Positions 1,860 through 31,537 of a stretch of DNA of 32,000 nt are shown here, piece by piece. The stretch spans positions 1,110,001 through 1,142,000 of the forward strand of contig OY969425.1 in the NCBI GenBank assembly GCA_963699255.1, in the 5' to 3' direction. The stretch is from an uncultured bacterium (lineage in GTDB: Bacteria; Margulisbacteria; WOR-1; CAVSGV01). The notes under the pieces were generated by a model. It was given only the letters and a program-made list of their open reading frames with translations. It made no database searches and had not been told where the DNA came from. The translations under genes were made by a program, and so were the position numbers. Within the stretch, counting starts at the first letter, position 1; every line of letters begins with the position of its first letter.

Positions 1860-3992
1860 TTACTTTATCCCTAGCGACCTTAACATTTCGCTTGTGGCGA
1901 TAATCTTGCGCGGCTTATTGTCATCTTCAAGAGCTGATACTATCCCAGCGGCTTCCATTTCATCCATAAGCCTGGCGGCGCGATTGTACCCGATCCTTAA
2001 TCTTCTCTGCAGGTGGGATGTGGAAGCCTGTCCGCCGGATACAATGATCTTTACAGCTTCGGCGAAAAGGTCGTCCTTTCCCCCCTCACCCGCGGCTCCT
2101 CCGGCTGCCATCACCCCGGCTTCTATATCGATTATTTCCTGAGAATACTGCGGCTGGGCCTGCTTCTTTATGAAAGACGTGATGCGCTCCACTTCATTAT
2201 CGGAAACGAACGCGCCCTGAAGCCTGAACGGCTTCATAGCCCCTATCGGATGATAAAGCATGTCTCCCTTCCCAAGAAGTTTTTCAGCTCCGGCTATGTC
2301 AAGGATAACACGTGAATCGACTTGTGTGGCTACAGCGAACGATATTCTTGACGGGATATTCGCCTTTATCAGCCCTGTTATGACATCAACCGAAGGCCTT
2401 TGCGTTGCGATCACAAGGTGAATGCCGGTCGCGCGGGCCATCTGGGCTATTCGGCATATGGTCGTTTCAACCTCATTGGCCGCGACCATCATCATGTCCG
2501 CCAGCTCGTCAATGATTATGACCAGGTAAGGCAGGGCCTCAAGTTCTTTGGGCTTAGCCGCGGCCTTAGCGTTGAACGCTTCCAGATTCCTCACACCGGT
2601 GGCGTAAAAAGTCTTGTAGCGGCGGTCCATTTCCTTCAGGACCCATTCCTTTAATGTCCTTGCCGCTTTTCTCGGGTCAGTGACGACCGGAGCCAGAAGA
2701 TGAGGTATATCGTTGTAATGCGACAGCTCTACCATTTTCGGATCGATCATAACGAACTTGACCTCGTCAGGCCTGGCCCTTAAAAGCAGGCTGATGATCA
2801 AAGTGTTAATGCAGACACTCTTACCTGATCCGGTCGTGCCGGCTATGAGCAGATGCGGCATTTTCCCCAGGTCGCCGAAGATCGGAGCGCCTGACAGGTC
2901 CTTGCCGATGCTTATAAAAAGCTTTGAATAATGGTTCTGGAATTCTTCGGTCTTTACGATATCCCTTAACCGGACCGGATTAACGGTGGGGTTGGGCACT
3001 TCTATCCCTACCGCCGCCTTTCCCGGGATGGGGGCTTCTATCCTTACTCCCTGTGAAGCAAGATTAAGGGAAATGTCATCGGCGAGGTTCGCGATCCGGC
3101 TTACTTTAACTCCCGGCTCCGGCTGGACCTCGTACCTTGTCACGGCAGGCCCCTGATGGACGGCTACGACCGAAGCTTCTATCCCGAAAGATCTCAATGT
3201 TTCTTCGAGCGCCTTTTTCCTTATTTCGATCGTTTCCTTTAACTTTTCCTCCCTCTGGCGGTCCTTGTCCGTCGGCAGATCAAGCAGCTCAAGAGGCGGG
3301 AGTTCGTATCTGCCCAGCTTTTTAGGAGAGGCGACAGCAGGTCTGGGTTTTTGCGGCTCAGGCGCTTTTCTTTCTTCTTTCTCAAATTCAATCGTCGCGG
3401 CATTCAATTCCTTAATGACAGGTATCATGGAAGGGATCGATCTTCTATCGGCATTTTCGGCAGGCTTCGGCTTTTTCGCCGGCCATCTCTTAAAAAATAT
3501 TGTAAATAGATAATCCCAGAGCCTGGAAATAGCGTGCGTCAGGGTTATATTGAAGATCAGGATCAAGGATATAAGGAACATTGATGACAGGACAATGTAC
3601 GAACCAGTTGAGCCGAAGGTCCCTTCAAGCCCACCTTTGATGACGGAGCCCAAAAATCCCCCGTCGCCGAAAGAGATCATTGTGCAGAAAAGAAGGAGTA
3701 TCCCAAGGACCTGGACCGTCAGAAGAAAGGTCTGCCGCCTCAGCATGAGTATAACGCCGAAGAATCCAATGAAATAAGGAAGAAAGTAAACCCCTACTCC
3801 GATCGCGGGCATTATGAACTTCCTGACAAGGTAAAGGCCCATAAGACCGGTCGATCCTGCCGGCTGGCCGGAGGAATTCGTTGAAAGGAAAATAAAAAGG
3901 GCAAAAGCAATGAGCAGTATCCCGATTATGTCCTGCCTTAAGTGAGAAGGCTTTCCTGTTTGTTCGAATCTTCGCTTCCTTGCCAATTCCAA
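1860..3992 (-). CDS. ftsK: DNA translocase FtsK/SpoIIIE
   Basis: 710-aa ORF with N-terminal TM helices and a linker, a Walker A (GTTGSGKS), a Walker B ([12 protein letters not shown]), and a C-terminal gamma winged helix ([24 protein letters not shown]). It has a TTG start. Confidence 0.95.
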
Positions 3993-5628: not shown

Positions 5629-6843
5629 ATGATCGTAATCGTCATTTTCTTGCTTCTGATAGCAACTCTCATTTATTTCTACAAGCGCGAGTTCGAGGTG
5701 AGAACTATCGTTTCGAAGGCCGCCTCAGGCAAAGGGCCCAGGATAGGGATCGTCTCCGACTGGCACAATACGGGAGTTCCATACCAGTCAAGGTTCCTGT
5801 CCGAATGTTTGAGCGGAAAACACGACGTGTTCATATTCGCGTACAACAAATATATGAAAGACAAGGCTGATTGGGGTTATAAAAATCTTGTCTTCACAAA
5901 GAACATCAAGCCCTGGAAAGTGATCAACTGGATCAAAAAAGAAGGTTTGAAAGCGGTCTTCTTTCCTGACAGGCTGGAAGATCCGGAGGTCCTGGACTGG
6001 TGCAAAAAGAGCGGCGTAGCTACAGTGATGATAATAAATTATGAGACGATAAAGAAAGAAGAGTTCGATCTATACGGGAAGAACTCCTTTCTGATGTGCC
6101 CCGTCAGGTGCACATATGACCTGTTAAAAAAATGCGGGCTCAGGAACGTCCGGTTCATCCGCTGGGCGGTGGATGACGGGATTTTCTCCGCCAAAGGCGG
6201 ATCCGCCTCCGGCGGAAGTCCTGGAAAAACGCCGATCAGGCCGCCGATAAGGTTCATCCACAACGCGGGTTTCGGTGGAGCTCAGTGGAGAAAGAACACT
6301 CTCGCCGTCGTGGAAGCATTTGAATCCGCGTGTAAAAAGAACAAGAACATCATCCTGATACTTAAGTCGCAAAAGCCCATTAAGGAATATCCTGAAAAAT
6401 TACGTGATATAATAAACGACAACGGCAGGATAAGGGTGATAGACAAGGACCTGGACCTCGGCAGGCTGATAGAACTTTACCGCTCGTGCCATGTTTCCAT
6501 ATTGCCCAGCAAATGGGAAGGGATAGGCATCCCCTTCATAGAATCCCTTTCGCTGGGGCTTCCGGTGATCACCGTCGATGCTCCGCCCATGAACGAATGG
6601 GTAAAGGACGGCTTCAACGGGCTCCTTGCCAGGGTCCTTAGATGGGAGCAGAGAAAAGACAGGAAGCTTCTGGTCAAAGGCGCGATAGTTGACGCGCCTG
6701 ATCTTTCAAAAAAGATGCTCAAGCTCACGGACGGCAAGCTAATCGAAAGGTTCGGCAGGAACGCGGTCAGTAGCGCCCGGGGGATGAAGAAAAGATTCAC
6801 AAAAGAAGTTGAAAGGCTGGTAATTTCCGCATGCAAAAAGTAG
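5629..6843 (+). CDS. Glycosyltransferase, GT-B fold (GT4/GT1 family)
   Basis: 404-aa ORF with the C-terminal motif PSKWEGIGIPFIESLSLGLPVITVDAPPMNEWVKDGFNGLL (E-x7-E type). It overlaps the next GT gene by 13 nt. Confidence 0.85.
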   Translation: MIVIVIFLLLIATLIYFYKREFEVRTIVSKAASGKGPRIGIVSDWHNTGVPYQSRFLSECLSGKHDVFIFAYNKYMKDKADWGYKNLVFTKNIKPWKVINWIKKEGLKAVFFPDRLEDPEVLDWCKKSGVATVMIINYETIKKEEFDLYGKNSFLMCPVRCTYDLLKKCGLRNVRFIRWAVDDGIFSAKGGSASGGSPGKTPIRPPIRFIHNAGFGGAQWRKNTLAVVEAFESACKKNKNIILILKSQKPIKEYPEKLRDIINDNGRIRVIDKDLDLGRLIELYRSCHVSILPSKWEGIGIPFIESLSLGLPVITVDAPPMNEWVKDGFNGLLARVLRWEQRKDRKLLVKGAIVDAPDLSKKMLKLTDGKLIERFGRNAVSSARGMKKRFTKEVERLVISACKK

Positions 6844-9912: not shown

Positions 9913-11004
9913 ATGAGCTTTTCCACATGTATCCCCGTAATGATGTACCACCATGTTAGCCCTGAGCCGGAAGATTCAATATCCATAAACCCGCAGAACT
10001 TTGAGATGCAGATAAAATATCTCGCTGAAGCACGCTACAGATCTCTGCACCTTCCGGAATTCTTCAGCCTTCTCAGGAGCTGGAACATCCCTGAAAAGCT
10101 CGTGCTTATAACCTTTGACGACGGATACGCCGACAATTTCATCTACGCTTATCCGATACTGAAAAAGTACGGAATGAAAGCGACGATATTTCCCGTGACC
10201 GCGTTCATAAAGGACAGTATAGAAAAACGGGGAGCCCTTACACCTGATTTTGAGCTGTTGATGAGAACACCTTTTGCCAAAAGGGGGCTTGATGATTTCT
10301 TAACGTGGGAAGAGATGAAGGAAATGCTATCCGGCGGACTGATAGATATTCAGGCGCATTGCCACGATCATGCCGCATACTTTGAGACAGACAAGATAAG
10401 ATCCTTTTACGACGGAAGCGACATGAACACAAAACTTGGCTGGGCAACCGACGGGGACCTGAGGCCGGGTATCCCGATCTATGAGACGGGCCCATCCCTT
10501 TGCGTTAGAAGATATTTCGATGACAAAGAGCTTAGGAACAAGCTCGCGGATCATGTCAAAAGCGGAGGCGGAGCTCTTTTCATGCAAAAGCCTGAAGCGA
10601 GAAAGGAGCTTGAGCGTATCGTCAGAGAACATGGAAAAATGAACGGCCGATTTGAAACAGAAGCGGAATCCGACGGCAGGATCATGAACGAATTGACGCT
10701 TACCAAAGAACTTATTGAGATCAAATTGAACAAAAAAGTGGATTACATATGCTGGCCGTGGGGAAGCGTGGATAGGCCATTGATCGAGCGGGCCAAGCGG
10801 GCCGGTTTCACAGGCGGGATCGGGATGAAAGGCGGGGCGAACATGAGGCTGACGAACATGATGGATATACACAGGTTCAATCCCTGCAGAAAAGATATAC
10901 CTGCGCTGAGACAAAAGCTGTTCAAGCATTCAAATCTCTGGCTTTCATTGTATAATGACAAGCGGATAGATAAATTATTAATAAGAAGGGAGAAGTTCCT
11001 GTGA
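9913..11004 (+). CDS. Polysaccharide deacetylase (NodB homology domain, CE4)
   Basis: 363-aa ORF with LITFDDGYADNFIYAYPILKKYGMKATIFPVT and a downstream H-x-x-x-H (QAHCHDH). It starts 1 nt after the DegT stop. Confidence 0.85.
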   Translation: MSFSTCIPVMMYHHVSPEPEDSISINPQNFEMQIKYLAEARYRSLHLPEFFSLLRSWNIPEKLVLITFDDGYADNFIYAYPILKKYGMKATIFPVTAFIKDSIEKRGALTPDFELLMRTPFAKRGLDDFLTWEEMKEMLSGGLIDIQAHCHDHAAYFETDKIRSFYDGSDMNTKLGWATDGDLRPGIPIYETGPSLCVRRYFDDKELRNKLADHVKSGGGALFMQKPEARKELERIVREHGKMNGRFETEAESDGRIMNELTLTKELIEIKLNKKVDYICWPWGSVDRPLIERAKRAGFTGGIGMKGGANMRLTNMMDIHRFNPCRKDIPALRQKLFKHSNLWLSLYNDKRIDKLLIRREKFL

Positions 11005-12839
11005 ACGCTCTGACATTAATGATAATAGCCTTGTGTGTTTTTGCCCTGGCTTACAGGTATTATTCCGTTTTTCTCACGACCAAGGTACTTGTGCTCGATC
11101 CGAAGAGAAAAACTCCCGCATACGCACTGAACGACGGCCATGATTATCATCCCACCAACAAATGGGTGCTCTTCGGGCATCACTTCGCTGCGATAGCCGG
11201 GGCGGGACCGCTGATCGGACCTGTTCTCGCGGCCCAGTTCGGGTACCTGCCCGGGGCGCTATGGATAATAATCGGCGCGGTCCTTGCCGGCGCCGTACAT
11301 GACTATGTGATACTTTTTGCTTCCGTCAGGCACAACGGGCTTTCCCTTCACAAGATAGCCCGCGACTATATAGGGAGAACGACGGGGATCGCTACCGCCG
11401 TCGCGGTGCTCTTCATCATCGTTACGGCGCTCGCGGGTTTATCGATCGTTGTCGTGAATGCCCTGGCGCAAAGCCCGTGGGGAACTTTTGCGATAGCAGT
11501 AAGCATCCCCGCCGCGATACTTGTCGGAATATACATGAAGATCAGGAAGGAAGCGCTGCTTGAAGCCTCCATCATAGGCACGGGACTGCTGCTTCTTGCC
11601 GTAATATTTGGATTCAACGTCCAGCATTCGCCTATAGCTTTTCTTTTCACTTATTCCAGGCATCAGCTAGCCCTTATCCTTATCGCGTACGGTTTTTTTG
11701 CGTCCGTCCTGCCGGTATGGCTCCTTCTATCCCCCAGGGATTACATAAGCTCGTATCTAAAGATCGGCACGGTCGCACTTCTTGCCGTAGGGATATTCCT
11801 GATCCATCCACAGATCAAAATGCCCGCCATCACTCCATTCGTGTTCGGCGGCGGGCCTATAATACCCGGAGCCGTCTGGCCTTATGTCTGCATAACGATA
11901 GCCTGCGGGGCCATTTCCGGTTTTCATTCGCTGATATCTTCGGGAACAACCCCTAAAATGATATCGAACGAAAAAGACATGCGGATGATCGGGTATGGCG
12001 CAATGCTCGTTGAAGGGTTTGTAGCGGTAATGGCGCTTATCGCCGCGACTTCCCTCATACCGGCCGATTATTTCGCGATAAATACTTCACCGGCCATTTT
12101 CAAGAACCTGGGCATGACGGTCGTTAATCTGCCGGTCCTTTCGAAAATGGTCCAGGAGAACGTGGTTGGACGCCCCGGAGGGGCGGTTTCCCTCGCGGTC
12201 GGAATGGCGCAGATATTTTCCGGCCTGCCGGGGATGAAAAACCTGATGGGCTACTGGTACCACTTTGCGATAATGTTCGAGGCGCTGTTCATATTGACTA
12301 CGATCGATGCCGGAACAAGAGTGGCGAGATACATAACACAGGAGATACTTGGGAAAGTAATAAAACCTTTTGGTGACACGAAATGGAAACCCGGCATAAT
12401 TTTGACGAGCGCAATGGTCGTCTTTGCATGGGGCTATCTTGTTTACAACGGGGACATCTCCACGATCTGGCCGATGTTCGGCGTCGCTAACCAGCTTCTC
12501 GCGACTGTCGCGCTTGTGATAGGGACTTCCGTGATATTAAAAAATAACAATAAAAAACTTTATGCGCTTGTGACCTTCCTTCCCATGCTTTTTATGCTCG
12601 CGACTACCGTTACGGCCGGGATCATGAACATTTTCATTAATTATCTCCCCCAGGGATCTTTCAACGGCAACCTGAACGCGCTGCTCTCCGCGGTCATGAT
12701 CATCCTTGTCGTTATCATCGTGATAGATTCATCCGTTAAGTGGTATTTTTACCTTAAAGAACACGGCTTAAAGACCCGGCAGATCGAAAAAGAAGAAAAA
12801 ACAAAAGAAAAAGATCCGGCCATGGAGCTGGATATATAG
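11001..12839 (+). CDS. cstA: Carbon starvation protein A (peptide/pyruvate transporter family)
   Basis: 612-aa polytopic ORF. The N-terminus ([13 protein letters not shown]...[38 protein letters not shown]) is a near-canonical CstA signature. Its GTG start forms a GTGA overlap with the deacetylase stop. Confidence 0.95.
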
Positions 12840-12861: not shown

Positions 12862-12978
12862 GGAACCTGCGACTGTCATGCCTGAGGCAGATCCGCCTCT
12901 GGCGGAAAAGTCGCGGTTCCGACACTATAACTGATTGGATTAAGATTTTTGGAACCGAGAATTTTATTCTCAGGTTCC
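12862..12978 (+). repeat. Bulged-hairpin intergenic repeat, copy 1 (module A with a 36-nt loop insert, then module B)
   Basis: GGAACCTGCGAC (12862-12873) pairs with GTCGCGGTTCC (12910-12920). It is followed by GGAACCGAGAAT-TTT-ATTCTCAGGTTCC (12951-12978). The arms match the other three copies. Confidence 0.8.
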
Positions 12979-15508: not shown

Positions 15509-16765
15509 TTATTTCCACACGGACGAAGCCACGCTCGATAATACAGGAAAGCTCTCTTTTTTATGAGGTTTGAGTTTTTTTGCGACAAAATCGATGATCT
15601 TTCCGGCAATGTCACTCTTGGACACTAATCCTGTTCTTTCTGACCTCCCGTCACCATAAATAAAACACGCCCTGCTTGAATCGACGTCAAAAGCTTCCGG
15701 CCCGTTCGCAACTATCAGATCAAGGTTTTTATCTTTCAATTTCTTTATTGAATTCTCGATCAAATTGCTTGTCTCAAGCGAAAAGCCTATCAATATCTTG
15801 TTGCCCTTCTTCCTGCCGAGCTCTTCCAAAATGTCATCCGTCCGCCTCAGTTCGATCTTGAGCCCTGATCCGCGGGCTTTCTTCTTCAGCTTTGAGTCCC
15901 GGGCCTTGAGCGGCTTATAGTCAGCCACCGCCGCCGCCATGATCACAACATCCGACCTCTTCGATTCGATCATCACCGCCTGCTTCATCTGCGCGGCTGT
16001 CTCGACTTCAATTATCTTGCAACCGGAAGGCTTCTCGATCTGCGTCGGCGTGGTCACCAAGGTCACTTGAGCTCCCCTTTCAACGGCTGCCCTTGCAGCC
16101 GCATATCCCATTTTCCCGGAAGACCTGTTCCCTATGAACCTTACAGGATCTATCGCTTCTTTTGTTCCTCCGGCGGTTATCAATATTTTAACGCCCGTTA
16201 AGTCTTTGGAAGTTTCGAGCATTTCCATGACTTTTGAGATGATAACGGGAACATCCGCCATCCTGCCCGCACCCGTGCTGCCGCAGGCGAGCCATCCTAC
16301 TTCCGGACCGATGATCTGATGACCAATAGATCTAAGCTTTGAGATGTTTTCCTGTACAACGGGGTTTTCCCACATGTTATTGTTCATGGCCGGAGCGATC
16401 AGCTTTGGCGCTTTCGAGCTTATCACCATGGTAGACAAAGGATCGTCGGCGATGCCCTGTGCGATCTTCCCGATGATATTTGCCGTCGCCGGAGCGATAA
16501 TCATCAGATCGGTTTTCTCGGTAATGGAAATGTGGGGAACTGGGATATCTGTCAGTTCATCAGAAAAAAGGTCGGTAATGACAGGGTTGCCTGAAAGCGT
16601 CCTGAAGGTCAGGGGCGTGACCAGCTTCGCCGCTTCCTTCGTCTCCACAACCCATACATCCGCCCCAAGCTGGACCAGCTTGCTCACGAGGTCAGCGGAT
16701 TTATATGCGGCTATGCCGCCCGTGACTCCAACAATGATAGTTTTATTTTTTAGCTTCATGTTCAT
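15509..16765 (-). CDS. coaBC: Bifunctional phosphopantothenoylcysteine decarboxylase / phosphopantothenate-cysteine ligase
   Basis: 418-aa ORF with an N-terminal flavoprotein domain (IIVGVTGGIAAYKSADLVSKL) and a C-terminal DFP/CoaB domain (ITAGGTKEAIDPVRFIGNRSSGKMG). Confidence 0.95.
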   Translation of the reverse strand: MNMKLKNKTIIVGVTGGIAAYKSADLVSKLVQLGADVWVVETKEAAKLVTPLTFRTLSGNPVITDLFSDELTDIPVPHISITEKTDLMIIAPATANIIGKIAQGIADDPLSTMVISSKAPKLIAPAMNNNMWENPVVQENISKLRSIGHQIIGPEVGWLACGSTGAGRMADVPVIISKVMEMLETSKDLTGVKILITAGGTKEAIDPVRFIGNRSSGKMGYAAARAAVERGAQVTLVTTPTQIEKPSGCKIIEVETAAQMKQAVMIESKRSDVVIMAAAVADYKPLKARDSKLKKKARGSGLKIELRRTDDILEELGRKKGNKILIGFSLETSNLIENSIKKLKDKNLDLIVANGPEAFDVDSSRACFIYGDGRSERTGLVSKSDIAGKIIDFVAKKLKPHKKESFPVLSSVASSVWK

Positions 16766-16781
16766 AATTTGAAATTTACCA

Positions 16782-16866
16782 GGAACCTGCGACTAAACGT
16801 CGCGGTTCCAATTGTTTAGTTGTTATCACTGAATCTTATGGAGCCGAGGCGTTCAGCCTCGGGCTC
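16782..16866 (+). repeat. Bulged-hairpin intergenic repeat, copy 2 (module A, linker, module C)
   Basis: GGAACCTGCGAC-TAAAC-GTCGCGGTTCC (16782-16809), then the linker ...TTAGTTGTTATCACTGAATC..., then GGAGCCGAGGC-GTTCA-GCCTCGGGCTC (16840-16866). It lies between the rpoZ stop and the coaBC start. Confidence 0.8.
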
Positions 16867-16899
16867 TTAACCAAACGCCAAAATGCTGAATTTTAATAG

Positions 16900-17202
16900 T
16901 TATTTTTTCTTGGCTTTAGGAGCTCTCGTCTTCTTTTTTCCCTCTTTGGCCAGCGAGGGTCTTGCCTTGACTTCCGCTTCCACCAGTTCCTGAGGCTTTA
17001 TTATCTCTTTGCCAAGCTTTATCTTGATTTTATCCGCGGCGATCTCTTTCAGGGCAGTAGTGATGGAATCCGTCGGATCAAAGTCGTCCACATAGGGAAG
17101 CGATCCCGCCAGTATCTGTTTGGCCCTTGTGATCGTGGCGTTAACCAGCAAAAACTTGTTCTTTACCTTTGACATTATGTCGTCAATCCTCAGTTCTTTC
17201 AA
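16900..17202 (-). CDS. rpoZ: DNA-directed RNA polymerase subunit omega, with a Lys-rich C-terminal tail
   Basis: 100-aa ORF. MSKVKNKFLLVNATITRAKQI matches the RpoZ N-terminal helix. It sits in the conserved gmk-rpoZ-coaBC order. Confidence 0.9.
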   Translation of the reverse strand: MKELRIDDIMSKVKNKFLLVNATITRAKQILAGSLPYVDDFDPTDSITTALKEIAADKIKIKLGKEIIKPQELVEAEVKARPSLAKEGKKKTRAPKAKKK

Positions 17203-24520: not shown

Positions 24521-24602
24521 ATGAGAGAGATGGGAGATGAGAGACGTGAGATGTGAAAAGACAGATCTCATCTCCCATCTCACATCTCGCATCTCATTTT
24601 TT
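24521..24602 (+). promoter_or_regulatory. Heptad-repeat palindrome plus T6 tract (terminator/attenuator-like) between tamB and bamA
   Basis: Four GAGATGN heptads (24521-24556) are followed by the 7-nt spacer aaagaca, four inverted NCATCTC heptads (24564-24597) and TTTTTT (24597-24602). A perfect 16-bp stem pairs 24527-24542 with 24566-24581. Confidence 0.6.
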
Positions 24603-26396
24603 GAAAGGGGTTCGTCCATTAAAAGATTTGCCGTTATATTAATATTTCTTGCGGCCTTATTGATAGTAAATAATGCCCTGCCCGCATTTGGCGTTATAAT
24701 CGGCTCCCCCGAAGCCCTGCCAAAAGTGGCCCGTCCGCAGCAAAAGATCGAAGTCGGACCTGTCGTTACCGCCATAGAAATAAGAGGGAACAAAACCATA
24801 GCGGAAAGCACGATCATGGATGCCGTTTTCAGCCGCATAGGAGATATCCTTATAGAGGAAAAAGTATCAAGTGATGTCAAAGCGATATATGCAATGGGTT
24901 ATTTTCAGGATGTTTTTGCTTCATTTGAGTCCTATGCCAAAGGAACAAGGATAATATTCAATACGATAGAAAATCCCGTTCTAAATGTGATATCCACTGA
25001 AGGTAATTCCGTATATACATCCGATAAGCTTGTATCTCTCATGAAAACCAGGGTCGGAGATATCCTGAACTTTAAGACCCTTCAAGAGGACATCCAGACG
25101 ATCAACGACTTCTATCACAAGAACGGCTACACTATCGCCAGGGTCGCCGATGTGTCCACTGACCCGAAAACCAGCACGCTTAAGATAAAGATCATTGAAG
25201 GGATAATTGAATCCATAGCACTTGACGGAAACCTTTCAACACGGGATGACGTTATTTTGAGGGAAATAGACACGAAGCCGGGCGATATTTTGAATGAAAA
25301 ATCGCTTTCAAAGGACCTGAGAAGGGTCTTTAACCTGGGCTTCTTCACCGAGCTTACCCCGAATTTTGAGCCGGGAAGTTCCCCGGAAAAAATAGTCCTT
25401 GTCCTCAAAATAAAGGAAGCAAAAACGAACACGCTCAACTTCGGCGGAGGATACGGAGAACAGGAAGGATGGTTCGGCTTCGTTGACACGAGCATGAATA
25501 ATCTGTTCGGTACGGGACATGGAACGATGGTCAAGGCGCAGTGGGGCTCCACTCTGACAACATATCAGTTCAAGTATTACTATCCATGGTTCATGACGGA
25601 CTATTTGGGGTCGAGGACATCCATGACTTACAGAGTATGGAACACGTCCGGCGCCGACATTTACGGCAATGAAGTTGAAGACGCCTTGAGAATAGGATGG
25701 GATATCGCGCTTACGAGGCCGTTCGCCGAATATTTCTCACATTCACTGACGTTCGGAAGCGAGACCGCGATACCTAACGAAGATTCCACTGTCACAAATG
25801 CCGTCACTTTTGAGCAATACTCGTCGGATTTCATCGGGTATTCTATCTCTTACGACACGAGGGACTTCTGGATGAACCCCACGGAAGGAATGTTCCATAC
25901 CATCTCCATCAGAAAAGGCTGGAAAGACACGGATAATGTGATAACCAATTATACGAAACTCGGTCTTGATATGAATGAATTCGTGAAACTCGGGATAAAC
26001 CAGGTTTTGGCTCTTCATGCCTCTACAGGGGTCGGATACGGCGATGTGCCTATCGGCGAACTTTACTGGTGCGGCGGCGCGAACACCGTAAGGGGTTATG
26101 CCCCGTCCGAAGCGGTGCTTGGCGCCAGAAAGCTCATATTCAATATCGAGTACAGGTATACTTTCAACGAGACGTTCCAGGGGGTTGCTTTTTATGACTT
26201 CGGCGACGCCTGGGGTGATGTCGTTAACGGCGAAGTCGACGGCGGCGCCCCTGATTTTTCCCAATTCATGAGCGGAAAAGGACTTGGCCTAAGGTTGAAC
26301 ACTCCAATGGGTCCCATAAGGCTTGACTACGGGATCGGCGATTCAAGGTCGTTCGGCGAAGGCATAGTGCATTTTTCAATTGGACAAGCTTTCTAA
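24537..26396 (+). CDS. bamA: Outer membrane protein assembly factor BamA (Omp85 family)
   Basis: It has POTRA-type repeats (VTAIEIRGNKTIAESTIMDAV..., ISTEGNSVYTSDKL..., IIEGIIESIALDGNLSTRDDVILREI) and a C-terminal 16-strand barrel with VRGY and a terminal HFSIGQAF. The track start at ATG 24537 lies inside the palindrome. The real start is probably ATT 24618 (see findings). Confidence 0.9.
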   Translation: MRDVRCEKTDLISHLTSRISFFERGSSIKRFAVILIFLAALLIVNNALPAFGVIIGSPEALPKVARPQQKIEVGPVVTAIEIRGNKTIAESTIMDAVFSRIGDILIEEKVSSDVKAIYAMGYFQDVFASFESYAKGTRIIFNTIENPVLNVISTEGNSVYTSDKLVSLMKTRVGDILNFKTLQEDIQTINDFYHKNGYTIARVADVSTDPKTSTLKIKIIEGIIESIALDGNLSTRDDVILREIDTKPGDILNEKSLSKDLRRVFNLGFFTELTPNFEPGSSPEKIVLVLKIKEAKTNTLNFGGGYGEQEGWFGFVDTSMNNLFGTGHGTMVKAQWGSTLTTYQFKYYYPWFMTDYLGSRTSMTYRVWNTSGADIYGNEVEDALRIGWDIALTRPFAEYFSHSLTFGSETAIPNEDSTVTNAVTFEQYSSDFIGYSISYDTRDFWMNPTEGMFHTISIRKGWKDTDNVITNYTKLGLDMNEFVKLGINQVLALHASTGVGYGDVPIGELYWCGGANTVRGYAPSEAVLGARKLIFNIEYRYTFNETFQGVAFYDFGDAWGDVVNGEVDGGAPDFSQFMSGKGLGLRLNTPMGPIRLDYGIGDSRSFGEGIVHFSIGQAF

Positions 26397-26459: not shown

Positions 26460-27128
26460 ATGATACCGATAAACCCTGGGGTGAGGAAGTTATACGATAT
26501 GAATTCAATAAGAGATAAATACATCAATGAGCTCGTCGAGTGGAACAAAAGGTTCAACCTCACAGGCCTGAAGACCGGGGATGAGATCCGGCTCAAGCTC
26601 TACGATGACTCATTGAACATCTCCAGGGCAGTTGATCTTTCCAAAAGAATTAAGGCGATCGACATCGGCTGCGGCGCGGGATTCCCGGGCATTCCGCTTA
26701 AGATAGAGAACCCTGACATTGAACTCACCCTCGTTGATTCTGTCGCAAAGAAAATAAGCTTTGTTGAACATGTGATAAAGGTCCTTGACCTGAAAGATAC
26801 CGAAGCGATATGCGGGCGGGCCGAGGATATTGCAAAAGACCGCCGGGAACAGTTCGACCTTGCGGTAGCCAGGGCTGTTGCAAAACTCAACACGCTCTGT
26901 GAATACTGCCTTCCTTTCGTAAGGATCGGCGGATCGTTCGTCGCTCAAAAAGGCCCCGACATTGAAGAAGAGCTTAAAGCCGCCGCATCGGCAATATCAA
27001 CTCTGGGCGGCCGCCTCAAGGAGAAGATCGGGGTTCCATCCGGCTGGCTTGTTGTCATTGAAAAGATCAGACCCACGCCTTCCGATTTTCCCAGAAGGGC
27101 CGGGCTCCCGTCCAAAAAACCGCTGTAG
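26460..27128 (+). CDS. rsmG: 16S rRNA (guanine527-N7)-methyltransferase RsmG (GidB)
   Basis: 222-aa ORF with WNKRFNLTG and a SAM motif (IDIGCGAGFPGIPLKI). It sits in the classical rsmG-parA-parB order. An alternative start at ATG 26499 has the better SD (GGGGTGAGGAAG). Confidence 0.9.
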   Translation: MIPINPGVRKLYDMNSIRDKYINELVEWNKRFNLTGLKTGDEIRLKLYDDSLNISRAVDLSKRIKAIDIGCGAGFPGIPLKIENPDIELTLVDSVAKKISFVEHVIKVLDLKDTEAICGRAEDIAKDRREQFDLAVARAVAKLNTLCEYCLPFVRIGGSFVAQKGPDIEEELKAAASAISTLGGRLKEKIGVPSGWLVVIEKIRPTPSDFPRRAGLPSKKPL

Positions 27129-27133
27129 AATTA

Positions 27134-27240
27134 GGAACCTGCGACCTGCCTCGCGGCAAGGCGGGCTAAACGTCGCGGTTCCTGTTATATTAGTTGTTAT
27201 TACTGAATCATTTGGAGCCGAGGCGTTTAGCCTCAGGCTC
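27134..27240 (+). repeat. Bulged-hairpin intergenic repeat, copy 3 (module A with a 26-nt loop insert, linker, module C)
   Basis: GGAACCTGCGAC (27134-27145) pairs with GTCGCGGTTCC (27172-27182). Then come TTAGTTGTTATTACTGAATC and GGAGCCGAGGC-GTTTA-GCCTCAGGCTC (27214-27240). Confidence 0.8.
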
Positions 27241-27254
27241 TTTTTCTAAAAATA

Positions 27255-27271: not shown

Positions 27272-28036
27272 ATGTCCACTATTTTCGCCACCGTTAACCA
27301 GAAAGGCGGGGTTGGAAAAACCACTACTTCCGTCAATTTGGCGTCATATCTTGCCACCTTCGGCAAAAAAATACTTCTTATTGATTGCGATCCCCAGGGG
27401 AATGCATCATCAGGCCTGGGCATTGACAGGAATGAGGTCACAACATGCATGTACGACGTGATAATCAACGGCGCTGAACTCTCTAGCATCATTAAACCTA
27501 CGGTAATTTCCGGTCTAGATATCGCCCCCGCGACCCCTCGTCTCGCCGGCGCGGAAGTAGAACTCACCGAAATGGACCTTAGGGAATCGATATTAAAGAA
27601 CGCCTTAATGCCGGCCAGGGCGAAATATGATTATCTTATTATTGATTGCCCTCCTTCACTCTCGCTTTTAACCGTTAATGCGCTTACGGCATCCGACCAG
27701 GTGATAATACCGATCCAATGCGAGTACTACGCGCTGGAGGGCTTGAGCCAGCTTGTAAAAACGATAGAGCTGATAAAGAAAAGCTTGAATCCTGACTTGC
27801 GCATATGCGGGATTTTGCTTACAATGTACGACTCAAGGACGCTTTTATCAGAGCAAGTGGTGGAGGAAACAAGGCGGCATTTCGGCGGAAGGGTGTTTAA
27901 GACCATAATCCCAAGGAACGTGAGGCTGGCGGAATCTCCTTCTTTTGGGCAGCCGATAGTGTTCTATGATCCTTCTTCGAGCGGCGCAGTGGCGTATGAA
28001 AACCTGTCCAGGGAAATACTGGACGGGCACATTTAA
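27272..28036 (+). CDS. parA: Chromosome partitioning ATPase ParA/Soj
   Basis: 254-aa ORF with a deviant Walker A (NQKGGVGKTTTSVNLA), IIDCPPSL, and the motif IPRNVRLAESPSFGQPIVFYD. Confidence 0.95.
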   Translation: MSTIFATVNQKGGVGKTTTSVNLASYLATFGKKILLIDCDPQGNASSGLGIDRNEVTTCMYDVIINGAELSSIIKPTVISGLDIAPATPRLAGAEVELTEMDLRESILKNALMPARAKYDYLIIDCPPSLSLLTVNALTASDQVIIPIQCEYYALEGLSQLVKTIELIKKSLNPDLRICGILLTMYDSRTLLSEQVVEETRRHFGGRVFKTIIPRNVRLAESPSFGQPIVFYDPSSSGAVAYENLSREILDGHI

Positions 28037-28056: not shown

Positions 28057-28920
28057 ATGCAGAAAAGAGGCCTCGGAAAAGGATTGTCTGCGCTGATACC
28101 CAACAACCCCAACAATAACGTTCTTACCGGCGGAAGAACGATAGTGAATATCGATATCAACAAGATCGTTCCAAATCCCAGACAGCCCCGAGCGGAATTC
28201 CCCCAGGAAACCCTTACTGAACTTGCTGAGTCGATAAGATCCCAGGGGATCATTGAACCGATACTTGCCCGTCCGAAAAACGGAAAATATGAATTGATCG
28301 CGGGAGAAAGACGCTTCAGGGCGGCAAGAAAGGCGGGCCTGACGGTCCTACCCGCAATAATAAAGGATTTTTCCGATGAGGAATCTCTTGAGATCGCGCT
28401 CATCGAAAATTTACAAAGGGAAGACCTGAATCCAATGGAAGAAGCCGAAGCATACGCGAAACTTTCGAGCGAATTCCAAATAACGCAGGTGGATATCGCC
28501 AAAAAAGTGGGAAAAGACAGGTCCACCGTCGCGAACATGATGAGGCTGCTGGAGCTGCCCAAGGAAATTCAGGCAAGCATAAGGAGATCTCAAATAAGCG
28601 TAGGACATGCGAGACCGATACTTTCGCTCGAGACCGAAATGGAAAAGCTCTCCCTCTGGAAAGAAATATTAAAGAACAACCTGTCCGTCAGGGACGTAGA
28701 GCAGATCGTTCACGGCGGGGACACGGAAGCAAAAAGGCTGAAAAAAAGGAAGCTCCCAAAGAACGAGGAACTGGTAGACCTTACGGAGTTGCTGACGACG
28801 CATCTGGGAACGCGCGTCAGGATACACGGATCGATCAAAAAAGGTAAAATAGAGATCGATTATTTTTCACAGGAGGACCTGGAAAGGATAATCGAGGCCC
28901 TGACAGGGAATATCACCTAA
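28057..28920 (+). CDS. parB: Chromosome partitioning protein ParB/Spo0J
   Basis: 287-aa ORF with the ParB box (IVPNPRQPR), the CTP-binding GERRFRAA motif and an HTH (ITQVDIAKKVGKDRSTVANMMRLL). Confidence 0.95.
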   Translation: MQKRGLGKGLSALIPNNPNNNVLTGGRTIVNIDINKIVPNPRQPRAEFPQETLTELAESIRSQGIIEPILARPKNGKYELIAGERRFRAARKAGLTVLPAIIKDFSDEESLEIALIENLQREDLNPMEEAEAYAKLSSEFQITQVDIAKKVGKDRSTVANMMRLLELPKEIQASIRRSQISVGHARPILSLETEMEKLSLWKEILKNNLSVRDVEQIVHGGDTEAKRLKKRKLPKNEELVDLTELLTTHLGTRVRIHGSIKKGKIEIDYFSQEDLERIIEALTGNIT

Positions 28921-29021: not shown

Positions 29022-29086
29022 GGAACCTGCGACTGAAAGTCGCGGTTCCAATCAAAGCGGAACCGAGAGTTTTACTCTCAGGTTCC
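29022..29086 (+). repeat. Bulged-hairpin intergenic repeat, copy 4 (compact module A plus module B, 65 nt)
   Basis: GGAACCTGCGAC-TGAAA-GTCGCGGTTCC (29022-29049), then aatcaaagc, then GGAACCGAGAGT-TTT-ACTCTCAGGTTCC (29059-29086). The 3' arm overlaps the ATPase stop codon. Confidence 0.8.
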
Positions 29087-31537
29087 ATAACTCTGAATAG
29101 TTACAGTCTTATTTCTTGAAAATATGAATTTCCTAGCTTCCAATAAAAGATTCAAAGCAAAAGAAAAGCCGGCGGCCATCAGGAAATATTCCAGGCTGAC
29201 GGCGCCTAAATTGATCTTATCGCTTATGTAAGGCACGAAAACACCGATAATCAGGACTGCGATCGCGGTCAATGCCCACAGGTTCATCACGGGATTGGTG
29301 AAAAAGCCAAGCTTATAAACCGGAGCCCTGTCCGAGCGGGATATGAAAGCCAGGGTAATGTGACCGAAGATCCATGCCGTAAAGGACAGGGTTTGCACCT
29401 GGACCAGCGGCAAACCGAGATGCCTGGCGTAGAAATAAACCCCTGTCACTGCGCAGAAAAGAACAAGACCTTTCAAGAAAACATCCATAACGGACGGAGC
29501 GTTCATTATTCGTTCTCCCCTGGCATAAGGAGAGCGGACATAAATATCTTTCTCCTCCGGCTCGCTGACAAATCCGGCCGAGGCCGCAAGGTCCATAAAA
29601 AGCTCCAGAAGGATTATCTGGATCGGGGCAAGAGGCATCGGCAGTCCCGCAATCGCCGGCAAAAGGAATATGAAAATAAGCGCCGCTTTGACCGAGAGGT
29701 AATATTTGATCCCTTTTTTCAGGTTATCATAGAATTTCCTGCCCTCAAATATGCCCTGGGTTATCGTTATGTAATTGTCATCGGCCAGGACGACTTCCGC
29801 GGCTTCTTTTGCGACATCCGTTCCGCGTATCCCCATGGCGATGCCTATATCGGCCGCCTTCAGGGCGAGCGCATCATTGACTCCATCGCCGGTTACAGCT
29901 ACAACCTCTTTGTTCTCCTGAAGGGCTTTTACTAGACGGTATTTATGCTCGGGCTCCGTGCGGGCAAAAACAACGACTTTCTTCACGAGTTCCCGCAGAT
30001 CCGCGTCCGACACTTTATCCAGTTCGGCTCCGGTGACAACTCTTCCGTCGCCGGATAAAATGCCGACCTCCCTCGCAATATATTTTGCGGTTTCAGGATG
30101 GTCGCCCGTTACCATGATGGTCCTTACTCCTGCGCCAGCCGCCCTGGCTATCGTTTCCCTTACGCCATTCCTAGGTGAATCTTCAAAACTGATCAAACCG
30201 CAGAATTTCATGCTCTGCTCCAATTTCTCCCAGTCCGCATGCACATCTTCGCCGGATAGTTCCCTGCGGCAGACAGCTATCACTCTTCGCCCAACAGAAG
30301 TCTGTTTTTTGAGCTCCATCATGACAGCGTTCTTATCAACGTTTTCGCAATGATCGATGATCTTTTCCGGCGCTCCCTTCAGGTAAAGCGCGAATTTACC
30401 CCCCTCTCCCCTGATGACCGAGTTGGTCTTCTTCTCATTGGTAAAATTGCGCTGCCGGACGATATTGAGATTCGATATTTTTCCCGCGGTCTCTTTCATC
30501 AGCACCTCATCAAGAGTGCTTGTGGACAAAGGCGTGGTCGCCATTGTCGCGCAATCCAGGACTTCCCGGCGCGCATTTCCAGGATAAATTTCCTTGATAT
30601 GCATTTTCCCTTCCGTGATCGTGCCCGTTTTGTCCGTTACAATGACGGTCGCATTCCCCAGGGTTTCGGCGGCCTTTATCCTTTTCACAAGAAAATTATG
30701 TTTCGACAAAGTATAAGCCCCCAGCCCTAGTACCATTGTAATGACTATCGGCAGTTCCTCGGGGATCGTAGCGAAAGAAAGCGACAATCCGGTCAATATC
30801 ATCGTCTTAAGGTCCTGACCCCTGAACCACCCTATTACCGGTATGATGATCGACATGAACGCCGCCACATAGACAAGTTTTCCCGCAAGGGATTTCATCT
30901 CGAGCTGAAGCGGGGTTCTCGGCGCCCTCGCCTGCTTTGCGGCGGCGGCTATCTTGCCGAGTTTTGTGTTCTGCCCCGTGGAATATATTTTTGCCGTCCC
31001 CTCCCCTGAGGTAACAACCGTGCCGGCAAACACGGCGGCGCCGTTCATTTTTTCCTGCGGGAAAGACTCTCCAGTCAATGAAGATTCGTCGATCTGCATA
31101 TCTATCGATCTGAGGATATTGGCATCGGCGGGGATCTTCGTGCCCGGCGACAGAACGAGGATGTCCCCGGGAACGATGTCCTTTGAATCTACCGCGGTTA
31201 TCCTGCCGTCGCGCAAAACCTTTGCCTTCGGGGAAGCTATCTCCTCCAGCGCGGCTATCGCTTTTTTAGCCCTGAACTCGTTATACACCTCGGCAAAAAC
31301 AAGCAGTATTATTACCACAAATATCGTAATCGCGTCATCAAGCTTGCCCCAGATGCTGTAAACGATACCAACGAAGAACAGGAGAAGTATCATCGGCTCG
31401 GTGATCTCGTGTCCGGCGATGCCGAAGAAGCTTATCTTCTCCGGCTTGAAGATCTCGTTCGGGCCGAATTCCATTAATTTTATTTGAACCTCTGCTTCTG
31501 ATAAACCAATTTCTTCCATCTTATCCATATTAATCAC
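29078..31537 (-). CDS. Cation-translocating P-type ATPase (P2-type, Ca2+/Mg2+-like)
   Basis: It has TGES (LTGESFPQ), a TM4 IPEELP motif, the phosphorylation site VTDKTGTITEG, the hinge VTGDGVNDALALKAADIGIAMG, and 10 predicted TM helices. The track start is GTG 31537. ATG 31528 (behind SD GAGGTG) and ATG 31519 (7 nt after a TTGACA-16-TAATAT promoter) are alternatives. Confidence 0.95.
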   Translation of the reverse strand: MINMDKMEEIGLSEAEVQIKLMEFGPNEIFKPEKISFFGIAGHEITEPMILLLFFVGIVYSIWGKLDDAITIFVVIILLVFAEVYNEFRAKKAIAALEEIASPKAKVLRDGRITAVDSKDIVPGDILVLSPGTKIPADANILRSIDMQIDESSLTGESFPQEKMNGAAVFAGTVVTSGEGTAKIYSTGQNTKLGKIAAAAKQARAPRTPLQLEMKSLAGKLVYVAAFMSIIIPVIGWFRGQDLKTMILTGLSLSFATIPEELPIVITMVLGLGAYTLSKHNFLVKRIKAAETLGNATVIVTDKTGTITEGKMHIKEIYPGNARREVLDCATMATTPLSTSTLDEVLMKETAGKISNLNIVRQRNFTNEKKTNSVIRGEGGKFALYLKGAPEKIIDHCENVDKNAVMMELKKQTSVGRRVIAVCRRELSGEDVHADWEKLEQSMKFCGLISFEDSPRNGVRETIARAAGAGVRTIMVTGDHPETAKYIAREVGILSGDGRVVTGAELDKVSDADLRELVKKVVVFARTEPEHKYRLVKALQENKEVVAVTGDGVNDALALKAADIGIAMGIRGTDVAKEAAEVVLADDNYITITQGIFEGRKFYDNLKKGIKYYLSVKAALIFIFLLPAIAGLPMPLAPIQIILLELFMDLAASAGFVSEPEEKDIYVRSPYARGERIMNAPSVMDVFLKGLVLFCAVTGVYFYARHLGLPLVQVQTLSFTAWIFGHITLAFISRSDRAPVYKLGFFTNPVMNLWALTAIAVLIIGVFVPYISDKINLGAVSLEYFLMAAGFSFALNLLLEARKFIFSRNKTVTIQSYGT

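Follow-up and report, generated by a model that had tools for sequence, protein, structure and literature searches.

A lineage-wide family of REP-like bulged-hairpin DNA repeats in Margulisbacteria with a likely Y1 transposase as mobiliser

Bulged-hairpin repeats occur at four places in a 32,000-nt stretch of genomic DNA from an uncultured bacterium of the Margulisbacteria (contig OY969425.1, positions 1,110,001 to 1,142,000; hereafter the window), and the type copy among them lies in the spacer between rsmG and parA. We conclude that these copies are probably members of a lineage-wide family of non-autonomous DNA repeats resembling repetitive extragenic palindromic (REP) sequences and bacterial interspersed mosaic elements (BIMEs), or REPIN-like, for which a Y1 transposase is the likely mobiliser. 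The family has a covarying hairpin structure and doublets of fixed polarity, it favours intergenic DNA, it has copies lying in-frame within genes, and in relatives its units bracket a gene for a Y1 transposase. A first-pass annotation, made from the sequence alone, had described the four copies and proposed a REP/BIME-like organisation. The observation is confirmed, and the interpretation is supported by many further copies in relatives, by their intergenic bias and by the lack of a match in Rfam.

Each of the four copies is built from two hairpins. We refer to one hairpin (A, B or C) as a unit and to an A + B/C pair as a doublet. The doublets occupy positions 12862-12978, 16782-16867, 27134-27241 and 29022-29086, where the first-pass annotation had placed them, except that the ends of the two module C hairpins were moved to 16867 and 27241, module C being best taken as 28 nt (16840-16867 and 27214-27241) with an unpaired terminal base. 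In each doublet an invariant A hairpin is joined by a B or C hairpin in inverted orientation, both sharing a 28-nt architecture that consists of a 6-bp foot, one bulged base, a 5-bp upper stem and a KTTYA loop. The arms of module A are identical in all four copies, with GGAACC-T-GCGAC before the loop and GTCGC-GGTTCC after it. Read on the opposite strand, module A becomes GGAACC-GCGAC-GTTTA-GTCGC-A-GGTTCC and has the architecture of B and C. The A loop is TAAAC in copy 2 and TGAAA in copy 4, whereas it extends to 36 nt in copy 1 (12874-12909) and to 26 nt in copy 3 (27146-27171); the long "loops" turned out to be nested insertions of other small palindromes. Copies 1 and 4 carry module B, GGAACCGAGA(A/G)TTTTA(T/C)TCTCAGGTTCC, in which an A:T pair is replaced by G:C as a compensatory difference. 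Copies 2 and 3 share a common linker followed by module C, GGAGCCGAGGCGTT(C/T)AGCCTC(G/A)GGCTC, with 91% identity over 53 nt. All of these details, from the invariant arms and loop sizes to the compensatory pair and the shared linker, were as first described.

The recurrence of module A in the window is not expected by chance. Its 12-mer has four exact matches, and eight matches with at most two mismatches against 2.2 expected, a number reached in none of 100 shuffles. When folded as single-stranded DNA, every copy formed two independent bulged hairpins (z-scores of -4.8 to -8.2). We also built a covariance model of the unit from the family alignment and searched the window with filters switched off. 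The six short-loop units were recovered as strong matches of 40.7-49.4 bits, while the top unrelated match scored 16.3 bits. The long-loop A unit of copy 3 gave a weak partial match (27139-27177, 11.3 bits), and that of copy 1 (12862-12920) was not reported. From this search we take the window to contain exactly eight units in four doublets.

Further copies were found in abundance outside the window. A scan in which each species was represented by one genome, and in which module A had to match exactly around a loop of 5-35 nt, gave 101 stretches from 25 species-level assemblies. The labels of these assemblies were nearly all Candidatus Margulisiibacteriota, Saganbacteria or WOR-1. The scanned assemblies represent species other than that of the window, the closest sharing about 78% nucleotide identity over 629 nt. 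Two loci from Solibacteraceae and Actinobacteria metagenome-assembled genomes (MAGs), L081 and L091 (loci from the scans carry L numbers), had 33-34-nt "loops" and were rejected as chance matches in GC-rich coding DNA. Altogether, 184 distinct units were present in about 720 kb of DNA from the relatives. A search requiring the KTTYA loop and at most two stem mismatches returned 204 units in 736 kb as opposed to 2 in shuffled sequence, and 80 ParA-linked loci from other organisms (482 kb), obtained by a metagenome scan with ParA in which relatives had at most 68% identity, contained none. Moreover, 194 perfect hairpins came from a search by structure only (a 6 bp + 5 bp stem, a 1-nt bulge and a loop of 3-7 nt), and only about four of them fall outside the family.

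The repeats matched no named family, in line with the first-pass annotation. The Rfam search at gathering thresholds gave no matches in the whole window, and a permissive search of the type copy (E up to 10) returned only microRNA and MicC noise with E of 0.37 or worse, far below the cut-offs. There were no sequence matches in viral contigs, plasmids or E. coli genomes, and a literature search found no paper describing repeats in Margulisbacteria or Saganbacteria. Among known types of repeats, we rejected CRISPR repeats, as there are no arrays, integron attC sites, as the copies are dispersed among core genes with no integrase, and parS, to which there is no similarity.

Across the relatives, the unit reads NNARCC, then G[AC]G[AG]N as the first strand of a 5-bp upper stem, the loop KTTYA, the second strand of that stem, an extrahelical base that is usually A, and GGYTNN. 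In a non-circular pairing test, in which only the outer core and the loop were required (ARCC N5 KTTYA N5 N GGYT), the upper stems were perfectly complementary in 203 of 212 occurrences, and the bulge base was A in 182 of them. Nine different upper stems were found (GCGAC, GAGGC, GCGAA, GAGAC, GAGAG, GCGAG, GAGAA, GCGGC and GACAC). Across 70 distinct unit sequences, two-sided changes affected 7 of the 11 pairs, with a covariation score of 0.467 against 0.160 for shuffled sequences and a collapse of the score in register-shifted controls. That alignment had been selected for pairing, and thus the core-plus-loop test is the fairer of the two. The foot core, the bulge, the loop and upper-stem positions 1 and 3 are nearly fixed, whereas upper-stem positions 2, 4 and 5 covary. 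It is the hairpin that is conserved rather than the sequence.

The common architecture with A inverted relative to B and C, noted earlier from four copies, holds across the 70 distinct 28-nt variants of the relatives. Unit A normally precedes the second hairpin at a spacing of 5-64 nt, and 74 of 78 neighbouring pairs were A-then-B, the others being two B-A, one A-A and one B-B; single units are also common. The linker TTAGTTGTTATYACTG recurs across species, and the A-linker-C composite of copies 2 and 3 was found with 87-92% identity at non-orthologous sites of another species (L062 and L080).

In the relatives, the units are associated with a transposase gene. We probed with an IS608 TnpA sequence by tblastn and obtained matches in five loci with open reading frames (ORFs) of 141-164 aa, which were verified with Pfam and NCBIfam. 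An E. coli RayT probe gave no convincing match by tblastn. In total, eleven Y1_Tnp loci were collected (L036, L041, L006, L071, L102, L103, L106, L187, L188, L189 and L039, the last a pseudogene), six of which were reached independently by protein homology. A B-oriented unit lies at or overlaps the 3' end of the Y1 gene in all eleven loci, several of the genes ending inside the unit, and upstream of the gene, nine of the eleven have an A-oriented unit no more than about 120 nt away, often some 10 nt before the start codon. The two flanking units are inverted, the upstream one having its bulge in the 5' arm and the downstream one in the 3' arm. Neither an adjacent tnpB nor other terminal hairpins were seen in the eleven loci. 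The proteins matched PF01797 (Y1_Tnp) with E values of 2e-19 to 5e-27 and the NCBIfam model NF033573 for IS200/IS605 family transposases with 66-92 bits (cut-off 55). H53, H55, Y116 and Q120 are invariant in four aligned proteins, and the HUH motif is DHVH, as in class 1.

The Y1 gene appears at low copy number and in syntenic positions. A protein search gave a family of 17 clusters, each listed on one or two contigs in the search table. No identical duplicates were seen in these fragmented MAGs, and one MAG had an intact copy together with a pseudogene. The neighbours are housekeeping genes, and several gene orders recurred between species, namely RecJ-Y1-PurD three times, ABC ATPase-Y1-MoeA twice and Y1-SpoU methylase twice, and the syntenic Y1 proteins of different species are 55-78% identical. 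Such an apparently low-copy, syntenic Y1 gene bracketed by units is a REPtron-like arrangement. As the same A-unit and B-unit bracket encloses the gene, a doublet looks like a Y1 unit from which the gene has been deleted.

The Y1 loci could also be read the other way round, with the units as preferred landing sites of an IS200-type insertion sequence, into which the Y1 gene inserts while the units spread or arise otherwise. REPs are landing sites for insertion sequences such as IS1397 or ISPpu9. In keeping with this, the Y1 proteins are IS200 class 1 by sequence, their genes occupy several different chromosomal positions, one of them is a pseudogene, and other palindromes nest in the units, so that the units are insertion targets for something. 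However, the genes have no left-end and right-end hairpins of their own, the units themselves abut the start and overlap the stop, and the inverted geometry of the flanking units is not that of IS200/IS605 ends. The restriction of each Y1 cluster to one or two contigs and the retention of syntenic positions between species also speak against it. We consider this alternative very unlikely, although it fares better than the others.

The genomic distribution of the units bears on whether they act as DNA or as RNA. By an estimate from ORFs, 81.5% of the bases in the loci are ORF interior, yet only 43 of the 184 distinct units (23%) fall there (binomial p about 1e-65), and the remaining 77% lie outside. 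The earlier claim of an intergenic location therefore stands as a strong enrichment but not as a strict rule: in-frame intragenic copies are common in relatives, and in the window, unit B of copy 4 reads GGA-ACC-TGA on the minus strand, which is the last two codons (Gly-Thr) and the stop of a P-type ATPase gene (29078-29086). Since it overlaps the 3' end of this gene, copy 4 is not strictly intergenic.

The polarity of a doublet can be defined by the member carrying GCGAC. Relative to their neighbouring genes, 16 intergenic doublets were co-directional and 14 anti-directional, with six more between convergent and three between divergent genes. The orientation is independent of the flanking genes, and the family behaves as DNA rather than as an oriented RNA motif. 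The four doublets of the window share one orientation, as had been pointed out, but this agreement is not significant on its own (p = 1/8). Across contigs, 11 of 12 additional A units shared the strand of the first A unit on the contig, some of them 70-250 kb apart; same-strand contigs were CAVSGV010000006.1, CAVSGV010000001.1, JBDRHP010000060.1, JBDRMQ010000060.1, JBAZPF010000001.1, JACRPM010000006.1 and JALOPZ010000002.1, along with the window (4/4), and the exception was JAFGDE010000029.1. This hints at a replichore-linked bias, but the association with local GC skew was not significant.

These data argue against a structured RNA element, that is, a cis-regulator, a terminator or 3' stabiliser, or a small RNA whose copies are kept for their function in the transcript. 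The strong covariation of the stems would fit such an element, as would the preference for spacers and gene 3' ends, and unit C of copy 3 (27220-27234 plus the T-run) even resembles a terminator directly after rsmG. However, the even split of orientations (16 versus 14) means that the units are random with respect to transcription, coding copies lie in-frame in both orientations, the pattern of an intrinsic terminator with a T-tract was found at this one unit of the window only, Rfam offered no match up to E of 10, and the units bracket a transposase gene. An RNA element is very unlikely as the primary explanation, ranking just behind the landing-site model. A secondary role in RNA may be compatible with the data.

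Copies inside genes were found in MutS, LeuRS, ValRS, MetH, a UvrD-type helicase, Lnt, MiaA, MiaB, QueA, RsmA, MoeA, a HemN-like protein and others. These hosts are real genes, as Pfam domains or alignments with E. coli MutS extend on both sides of the unit. The intragenic units occur in both orientations and encode, depending on orientation and frame, the peptides EPRRLVAGS, EPATKRRGS, NRDVQSQV, GTATFSRRF or NLRLNVAV. All five stop-free frames are used, and the frame containing a stop (GGA ACC TGC GAC TAA) never is. Furthermore, every copy seen in the NRDVQSQV frame has a C-containing loop variant, which avoids a TAG codon. Frame usage and the intragenic pattern are as expected if insertion were blind and selection then acted as a filter.

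Orthologous genes give a mixed picture of the age and turnover of the intragenic copies. A solo A unit occupies the same position of mutS in four species (L072 6974-7001, L006 753-780, L087 3971-3998 and L070 534-561) and is identical at 28 of 28 nucleotides including synonymous sites, whereas in the coding sequence on either side no more than about half of the columns are invariant. Ascertainment bias affects the comparison, as a search for exact A had led to these loci, and the identity could reflect either constraint at the nucleotide level or re-homogenisation. In orthologous MoeA proteins with 76% identity, one site has an A+B doublet in one species (L036 3264-3330) and a flipped single unit with a nested palindrome in the other (L103, about 3760-3820), and at a second site the unit is intact in one of the two species but decayed in its counterpart (GNRDFQSQVP versus GNRGFQPQGP; L036 4004-4031 and the orthologous site of L103). 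The mutS and MoeA comparisons thus indicate both long vertical persistence and turnover.

The identical mutS units and the persistence of intact and decayed units at orthologous MoeA sites, together with the position of the type copy next to parA, might suggest that the units are host-maintained DNA sites for a nucleoid protein, a topoisomerase or a segregation protein, no longer mobile and with the Y1 link as a relic. We give this idea still less weight than an RNA element. The mutS comparison is biased by the selection for exact A, the units do not resemble parS, the presence and orientation of units differ between related species at the same site, and the lineage-specific B variants and linkers imply continuing turnover.

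The units themselves appear to host other small repeats. A 20-nt perfect palindrome, CCTGCCTGCCGGCAGGCAGG, together with decayed versions of it, is repeatedly nested in units in either orientation, either where stem and loop meet or inside the 3' upper stem. Nested copies were seen in the window (27146-27166) and at L015 3953, L033 5824, L074 2720, L022 6854 and 7680, L050 2834, L013 1890 and L103 3784, while copies outside units lie at L024 5013, L062 4706, L070 253, L071 2105 and L096 4658. The 26-nt "loop" of copy 3 is a degenerate copy of CCTGCCTGCCGGCAGGCAGG in the same position as in L074. From such nesting, the unit hairpins seem to be insertion targets for another element. A third repeat consists of a tandem pair of mini-hairpins, TCCGCC-NNN-GGCGGA twice, and occurs at window 6187-6217, in a variant form at window 12880-12907 in the loop of copy 1, at L050 3174-3205 and at L017 466-500. 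At 6187-6217 it lies in-frame in a GT1 glycosyltransferase ORF (5629-6843) and encodes the peptide SAKGGSASGG; the same DNA and peptide occur in MiaA of another MAG.

A conventional mobile element carries the doublet in MAG JACRPM01. At least 10-11 identical copies of an element of roughly 150-190 nt, with terminal inverted repeats (TIRs) GG[TC]TC..AGCAAACAGTGTGC and 9-bp target duplications such as CTACCAAAC and TTACTTTAT, each have an internal A+B doublet (L012, L016, L023 with two copies, L024, L032, L052, L060, L090 and L100). As the doublet hitch-hikes in this miniature inverted-repeat transposable element (MITE), the copies are not independent insertions of the doublet. The least probable alternative, in which the doublets generally are TIR-type MITEs of a DDE transposase with the hairpins as TIRs, can draw on these JACRPM01 elements and on the composite inverted termini produced by the mutual inversion of A and B, but it is highly improbable given that target-site duplications or conserved flanks were absent outside JACRPM01, single units are common, A and B, with their differing upper stems, are ill matched as a pair of TIRs, bulged hairpins with conserved loops are what Y1 enzymes act on, and no DDE transposase was seen next to the units.

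A different enclosure was observed in MAG JBAZPF01, where an additional inverted repeat, about 9-10 bp long (CCGATATAG...CTATATCGG), surrounds the A and B units of a lineage-specific doublet subfamily (L025, L037, L045, L049, L055, L066, L067, L084 and L099). This element could fold as a longer REPIN-like hairpin.

Within the window, all parts of the four copies are given on the plus strand. Copy 1 lies between the genes for CstA (11001-12839, plus strand) and an esterase (from about 13005, plus strand). Its unit A (12862-12920) has the foot GGAACC/GGTTCC, a bulged T, the upper stem GCGAC/GTCGC and the 36-nt loop, in which a nested double mini-hairpin (12880-12907; GCCTGAGGCAGA TCCGCC-TCT-GGCGGA) belongs to the separate small palindrome family also present at 6187-6217. 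A 30-nt linker found in this copy only (12921-12950) leads to unit B (12951-12978; GGAACC-GAGAA-TTTTA-TTCTC-A-GGTTCC), which is inverted relative to A and scored 47.1 bits. Copy 2, between CoaBC (15509-16765, minus strand) and RpoZ (16900-17202, minus strand), comprises unit A (16782-16809; loop TAAAC; 49.4 bits on the minus strand, which corresponds to the B orientation of the model), a linker (16810-16839) containing TTAGTTGTTATCACTGAATC, common to copy 3 and the doublets of another species at L062 and L080, and unit C (16840-16867; GGAGCC-GAGGC-GTTCA-GCCTC-G-GGCTC(T); 40.7 bits).

The type copy, copy 3, is located between RsmG (26460-27128, plus strand) and ParA (27272-28036, plus strand). 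In its unit A (27134-27182), a 21-nt nested palindrome (27146-27166) is placed between the 5' upper stem and the TAAAC loop; the linker (27183-27213) contains TTAGTTGTTATTACTGAATC, and unit C (27214-27241; GGAGCC-GAGGC-GTTTA-GCCTC-A-GGCTC(T); 42.8 bits) is followed by TTTTTCT. Copy 4 lies between ParB (28057-28920, plus strand) and the P-type ATPase gene (29078-31537, minus strand), and consists of unit A (29022-29049; loop TGAAA; 48.2 bits), a 9-nt linker (29050-29058) and unit B (29059-29086; GGAACC-GAGAG-TTTTA-CTCTC-A-GGTTCC). A search of the window for tRNA and tmRNA genes found none. Elsewhere in the window, at 24528-24604, immediately before a BamA-like ORF and extending across its start, a repeat listing gave short direct repeats AGATGGGAGATGAGAGACGTGAGATGTGAAAAGACAG followed by the partly complementary CTCACATCTCGCATCTCAT.

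We compared three of these sites with relatives. The rsmG/parA spacer is 143 nt long in the window, 107-108 nt of which are the element, and the distant syntenic locus L108 (BamA-like, RsmG, ParA and ParB) has a spacer of 13 nt, so short that the site must be empty there. The coaBC/rpoZ spacer of MAG JBAZPF01 (L018 762-855) has no element and carries an unrelated short tandem or inverted repeat, tagacctctggac...ggtctagaggtcta, and at the cstA/esterase site, synteny is lost in L073. These last two species are too distant for the comparisons to define the ends of the element.

Several observations weigh against REP-like repeats moved by a RAYT-like transposase. First, by sequence the enzyme would be assigned to IS200 class 1 and not to the canonical REP-associated tyrosine transposases (RAYTs). 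Its tyrosine motif is YI[EKN][NG]Q; Y---Q marks class 1 (IS200-type) and Y---NP marks class 2 or TnpA-REP (Quentin et al. 2018, PMC6006769). The motif NP(L/V)(R/K)xG beside the catalytic tyrosine of RAYTs (Nunvar et al., PMC2817692) is also absent. With the NCBIfam RAYT model NF047646 (REP_Tyr_transpos) the proteins scored 48-54 bits, below the cut-off of 80, and matches in the Protein Data Bank (PDB) were to IS200-type TnpAs only (2fyx, 2f4f, 2xm3 and 2a6m), E. coli TnpA-REP not being among the matches up to E of 1. Second, the bracketing of Y1 genes by units was found in relatives; tblastn with the IS608 TnpA probe found no such gene in the window, as the first-pass annotation had noted of RAYT and IS200-type genes. 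Within a MAG, the units beside a Y1 gene often have other upper stems than the dispersed doublets. Third, the 15-nt flanks on either side of 192 units showed only mild A/T richness, with no guide-like tetranucleotide and none of the GT[AG]G or CGTC heads typical of REP super-families (PMC3733652). Fourth, exact-A counts per representative MAG are modest, at roughly 5-20, no filled/empty polymorphism between close strains was obtained, the JACRPM01 copies had to be rejected as recent doublet transposition, as they are MITEs with TIRs and target-site duplications that merely carry the doublet, and the association of orientation with local GC skew is not significant (odds ratio 0.48, p about 0.1).

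The likeness to REP systems lies in the organisation. REP/BIME and REPIN elements with RAYT (TnpA-REP) enzymes have been described in E. coli, Pseudomonas and Stenotrophomonas (PMC2817692, PMC3116915, PMC5581495). Just like these, the units are short and imperfectly palindromic, they contain an asymmetry element in the form of the bulge, compensatory changes preserve their stem pairing, and they are multi-copy and mostly intergenic with few in divergent promoter regions. The inverted doublets of two unit types with recurring linkers correspond to the Y and Z units of BIMEs, and the syntenic, apparently low-copy Y1 gene bracketed by inverted units in relatives corresponds to a REPtron. On the other hand, the two units of a doublet cannot pair into one long hairpin as in a REPIN, roughly a quarter of the units are intragenic and in-frame, and the hosts are Margulisiibacteriota and Saganbacteria, with no sequence similarity to E. 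coli genomes. The family works like a REP/RAYT system but lacks the sequence-level hallmarks of RAYTs and of GTAG REPs, and its share of in-frame copies within genes is unusually high.

The enzyme finds its best family match in IS200/IS605 (IS608, ISDra2), with the class 1 motifs DHVH and YIxNQ, and the imperfect hairpins of 20-30 nt with an extrahelical base would likewise be putative single-stranded substrates. In contrast to IS200/IS605, the hairpins on either side of the gene are inverted instead of lying as direct copies on one strand, the gene seems to be low-copy, keeps syntenic positions and lacks tnpB, and the hairpins rather than the gene seem to be the multi-copy part. There is precedent for low-copy Y1 enzymes of the Y---Q (IS200-like) type that are no insertion sequences, and for REPtron-like behaviour, outside the RAYT clade in subclass 1.2, class 3 and IS200 Group 3. 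Subclass 1.2 comprises low-copy Y1 enzymes that are not insertion sequences, with the signature Y---Q--HH, and was reported without REPs (PMC6006769); this signature is absent from the Y1 proteins here. Class 3 enzymes of Planctomycetes and Acidobacteria have NHVH and YV..EQ motifs and a CnGA foot (PMC6006769), and on this published description the DHVH and YIxNQ motifs would set our enzyme apart. Class 3 (PMC6006769) and IS200 Group 3 (Bertels et al. 2017, PMC5581495) are linked to abundant atypical hairpins or 16-mers, and both class 2 (Y---NP) and class 3 have been reported to include REPtron-type arrangements (PMC6006769).

The in-frame copies find their closest precedent in the Rickettsia palindromic elements (RPEs), selfish palindromes that often lie in-frame in housekeeping genes and add a short peptide while leaving the protein intact (Ogata 2000, 2002; PMC10969869). 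The two share the habit of entering unrelated housekeeping genes in-frame, but not sequence, size or host: RPEs measure about 100-150 bp, are Rickettsia-specific and have no known transposase, whereas the present family consists of a 28-nt hairpin or a 65-110-nt doublet, adds about 9-35 residues and has a candidate Y1 enzyme.

How might the units have spread? By analogy, the Y1 enzyme would bind, cut and move the units, and the genome of the window would presumably encode one. The propagating form would be the doublet in its fixed inverted order, with A (GCGAC), a linker of 5-64 nt and a lineage-specific B or C. On single-stranded DNA, a Y1 dimer would recognise the hairpin in its folded form by the foot, the extrahelical base and the loop, while the covarying positions of the upper stem would not be read. 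After cleavage at the hairpin feet, the A-linker-B doublet could be re-ligated elsewhere, as with IS200/IS605 TnpA and TnpA-REP. Selection would then purge harmful insertions, and the surviving copies would be those in spacers, those at the 3' ends of genes and those that are in-frame where a protein loop tolerates them. Any influence on transcripts, for instance through a 3' hairpin or a terminator like that after rsmG, would be incidental.

Our picture of REP/RAYT systems comes mainly from Proteobacteria; Margulisiibacteriota and Saganbacteria form a lineage that is sister to Cyanobacteria. What sets the family apart is a REP-like genomic logic that has no GTAG head and whose likely enzyme is of IS200-type class 1. 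The compact 28-nt unit with its freely covarying upper stem predicts that the enzyme reads the foot, the bulge and the loop. In-frame copies provide a second example of "selfish DNA inside proteins" after RPEs and amount to natural maps of insertion tolerance. The units also explain short peptide insertions in host proteins, are a likely cause of contig breaks, and offer a lineage marker for binning these MAGs. More tentatively, an IS200 class 1 Y1 enzyme may have been domesticated in a REPtron-like manner independently of the RAYT clade, with an A hairpin that is nucleotide-identical across about two dozen species and tolerated, perhaps actively maintained, in-frame in essential genes such as mutS, leuS, valS and metH; this hairpin could then be a long-lived, vertically inherited replicator that also remodels protein loops.

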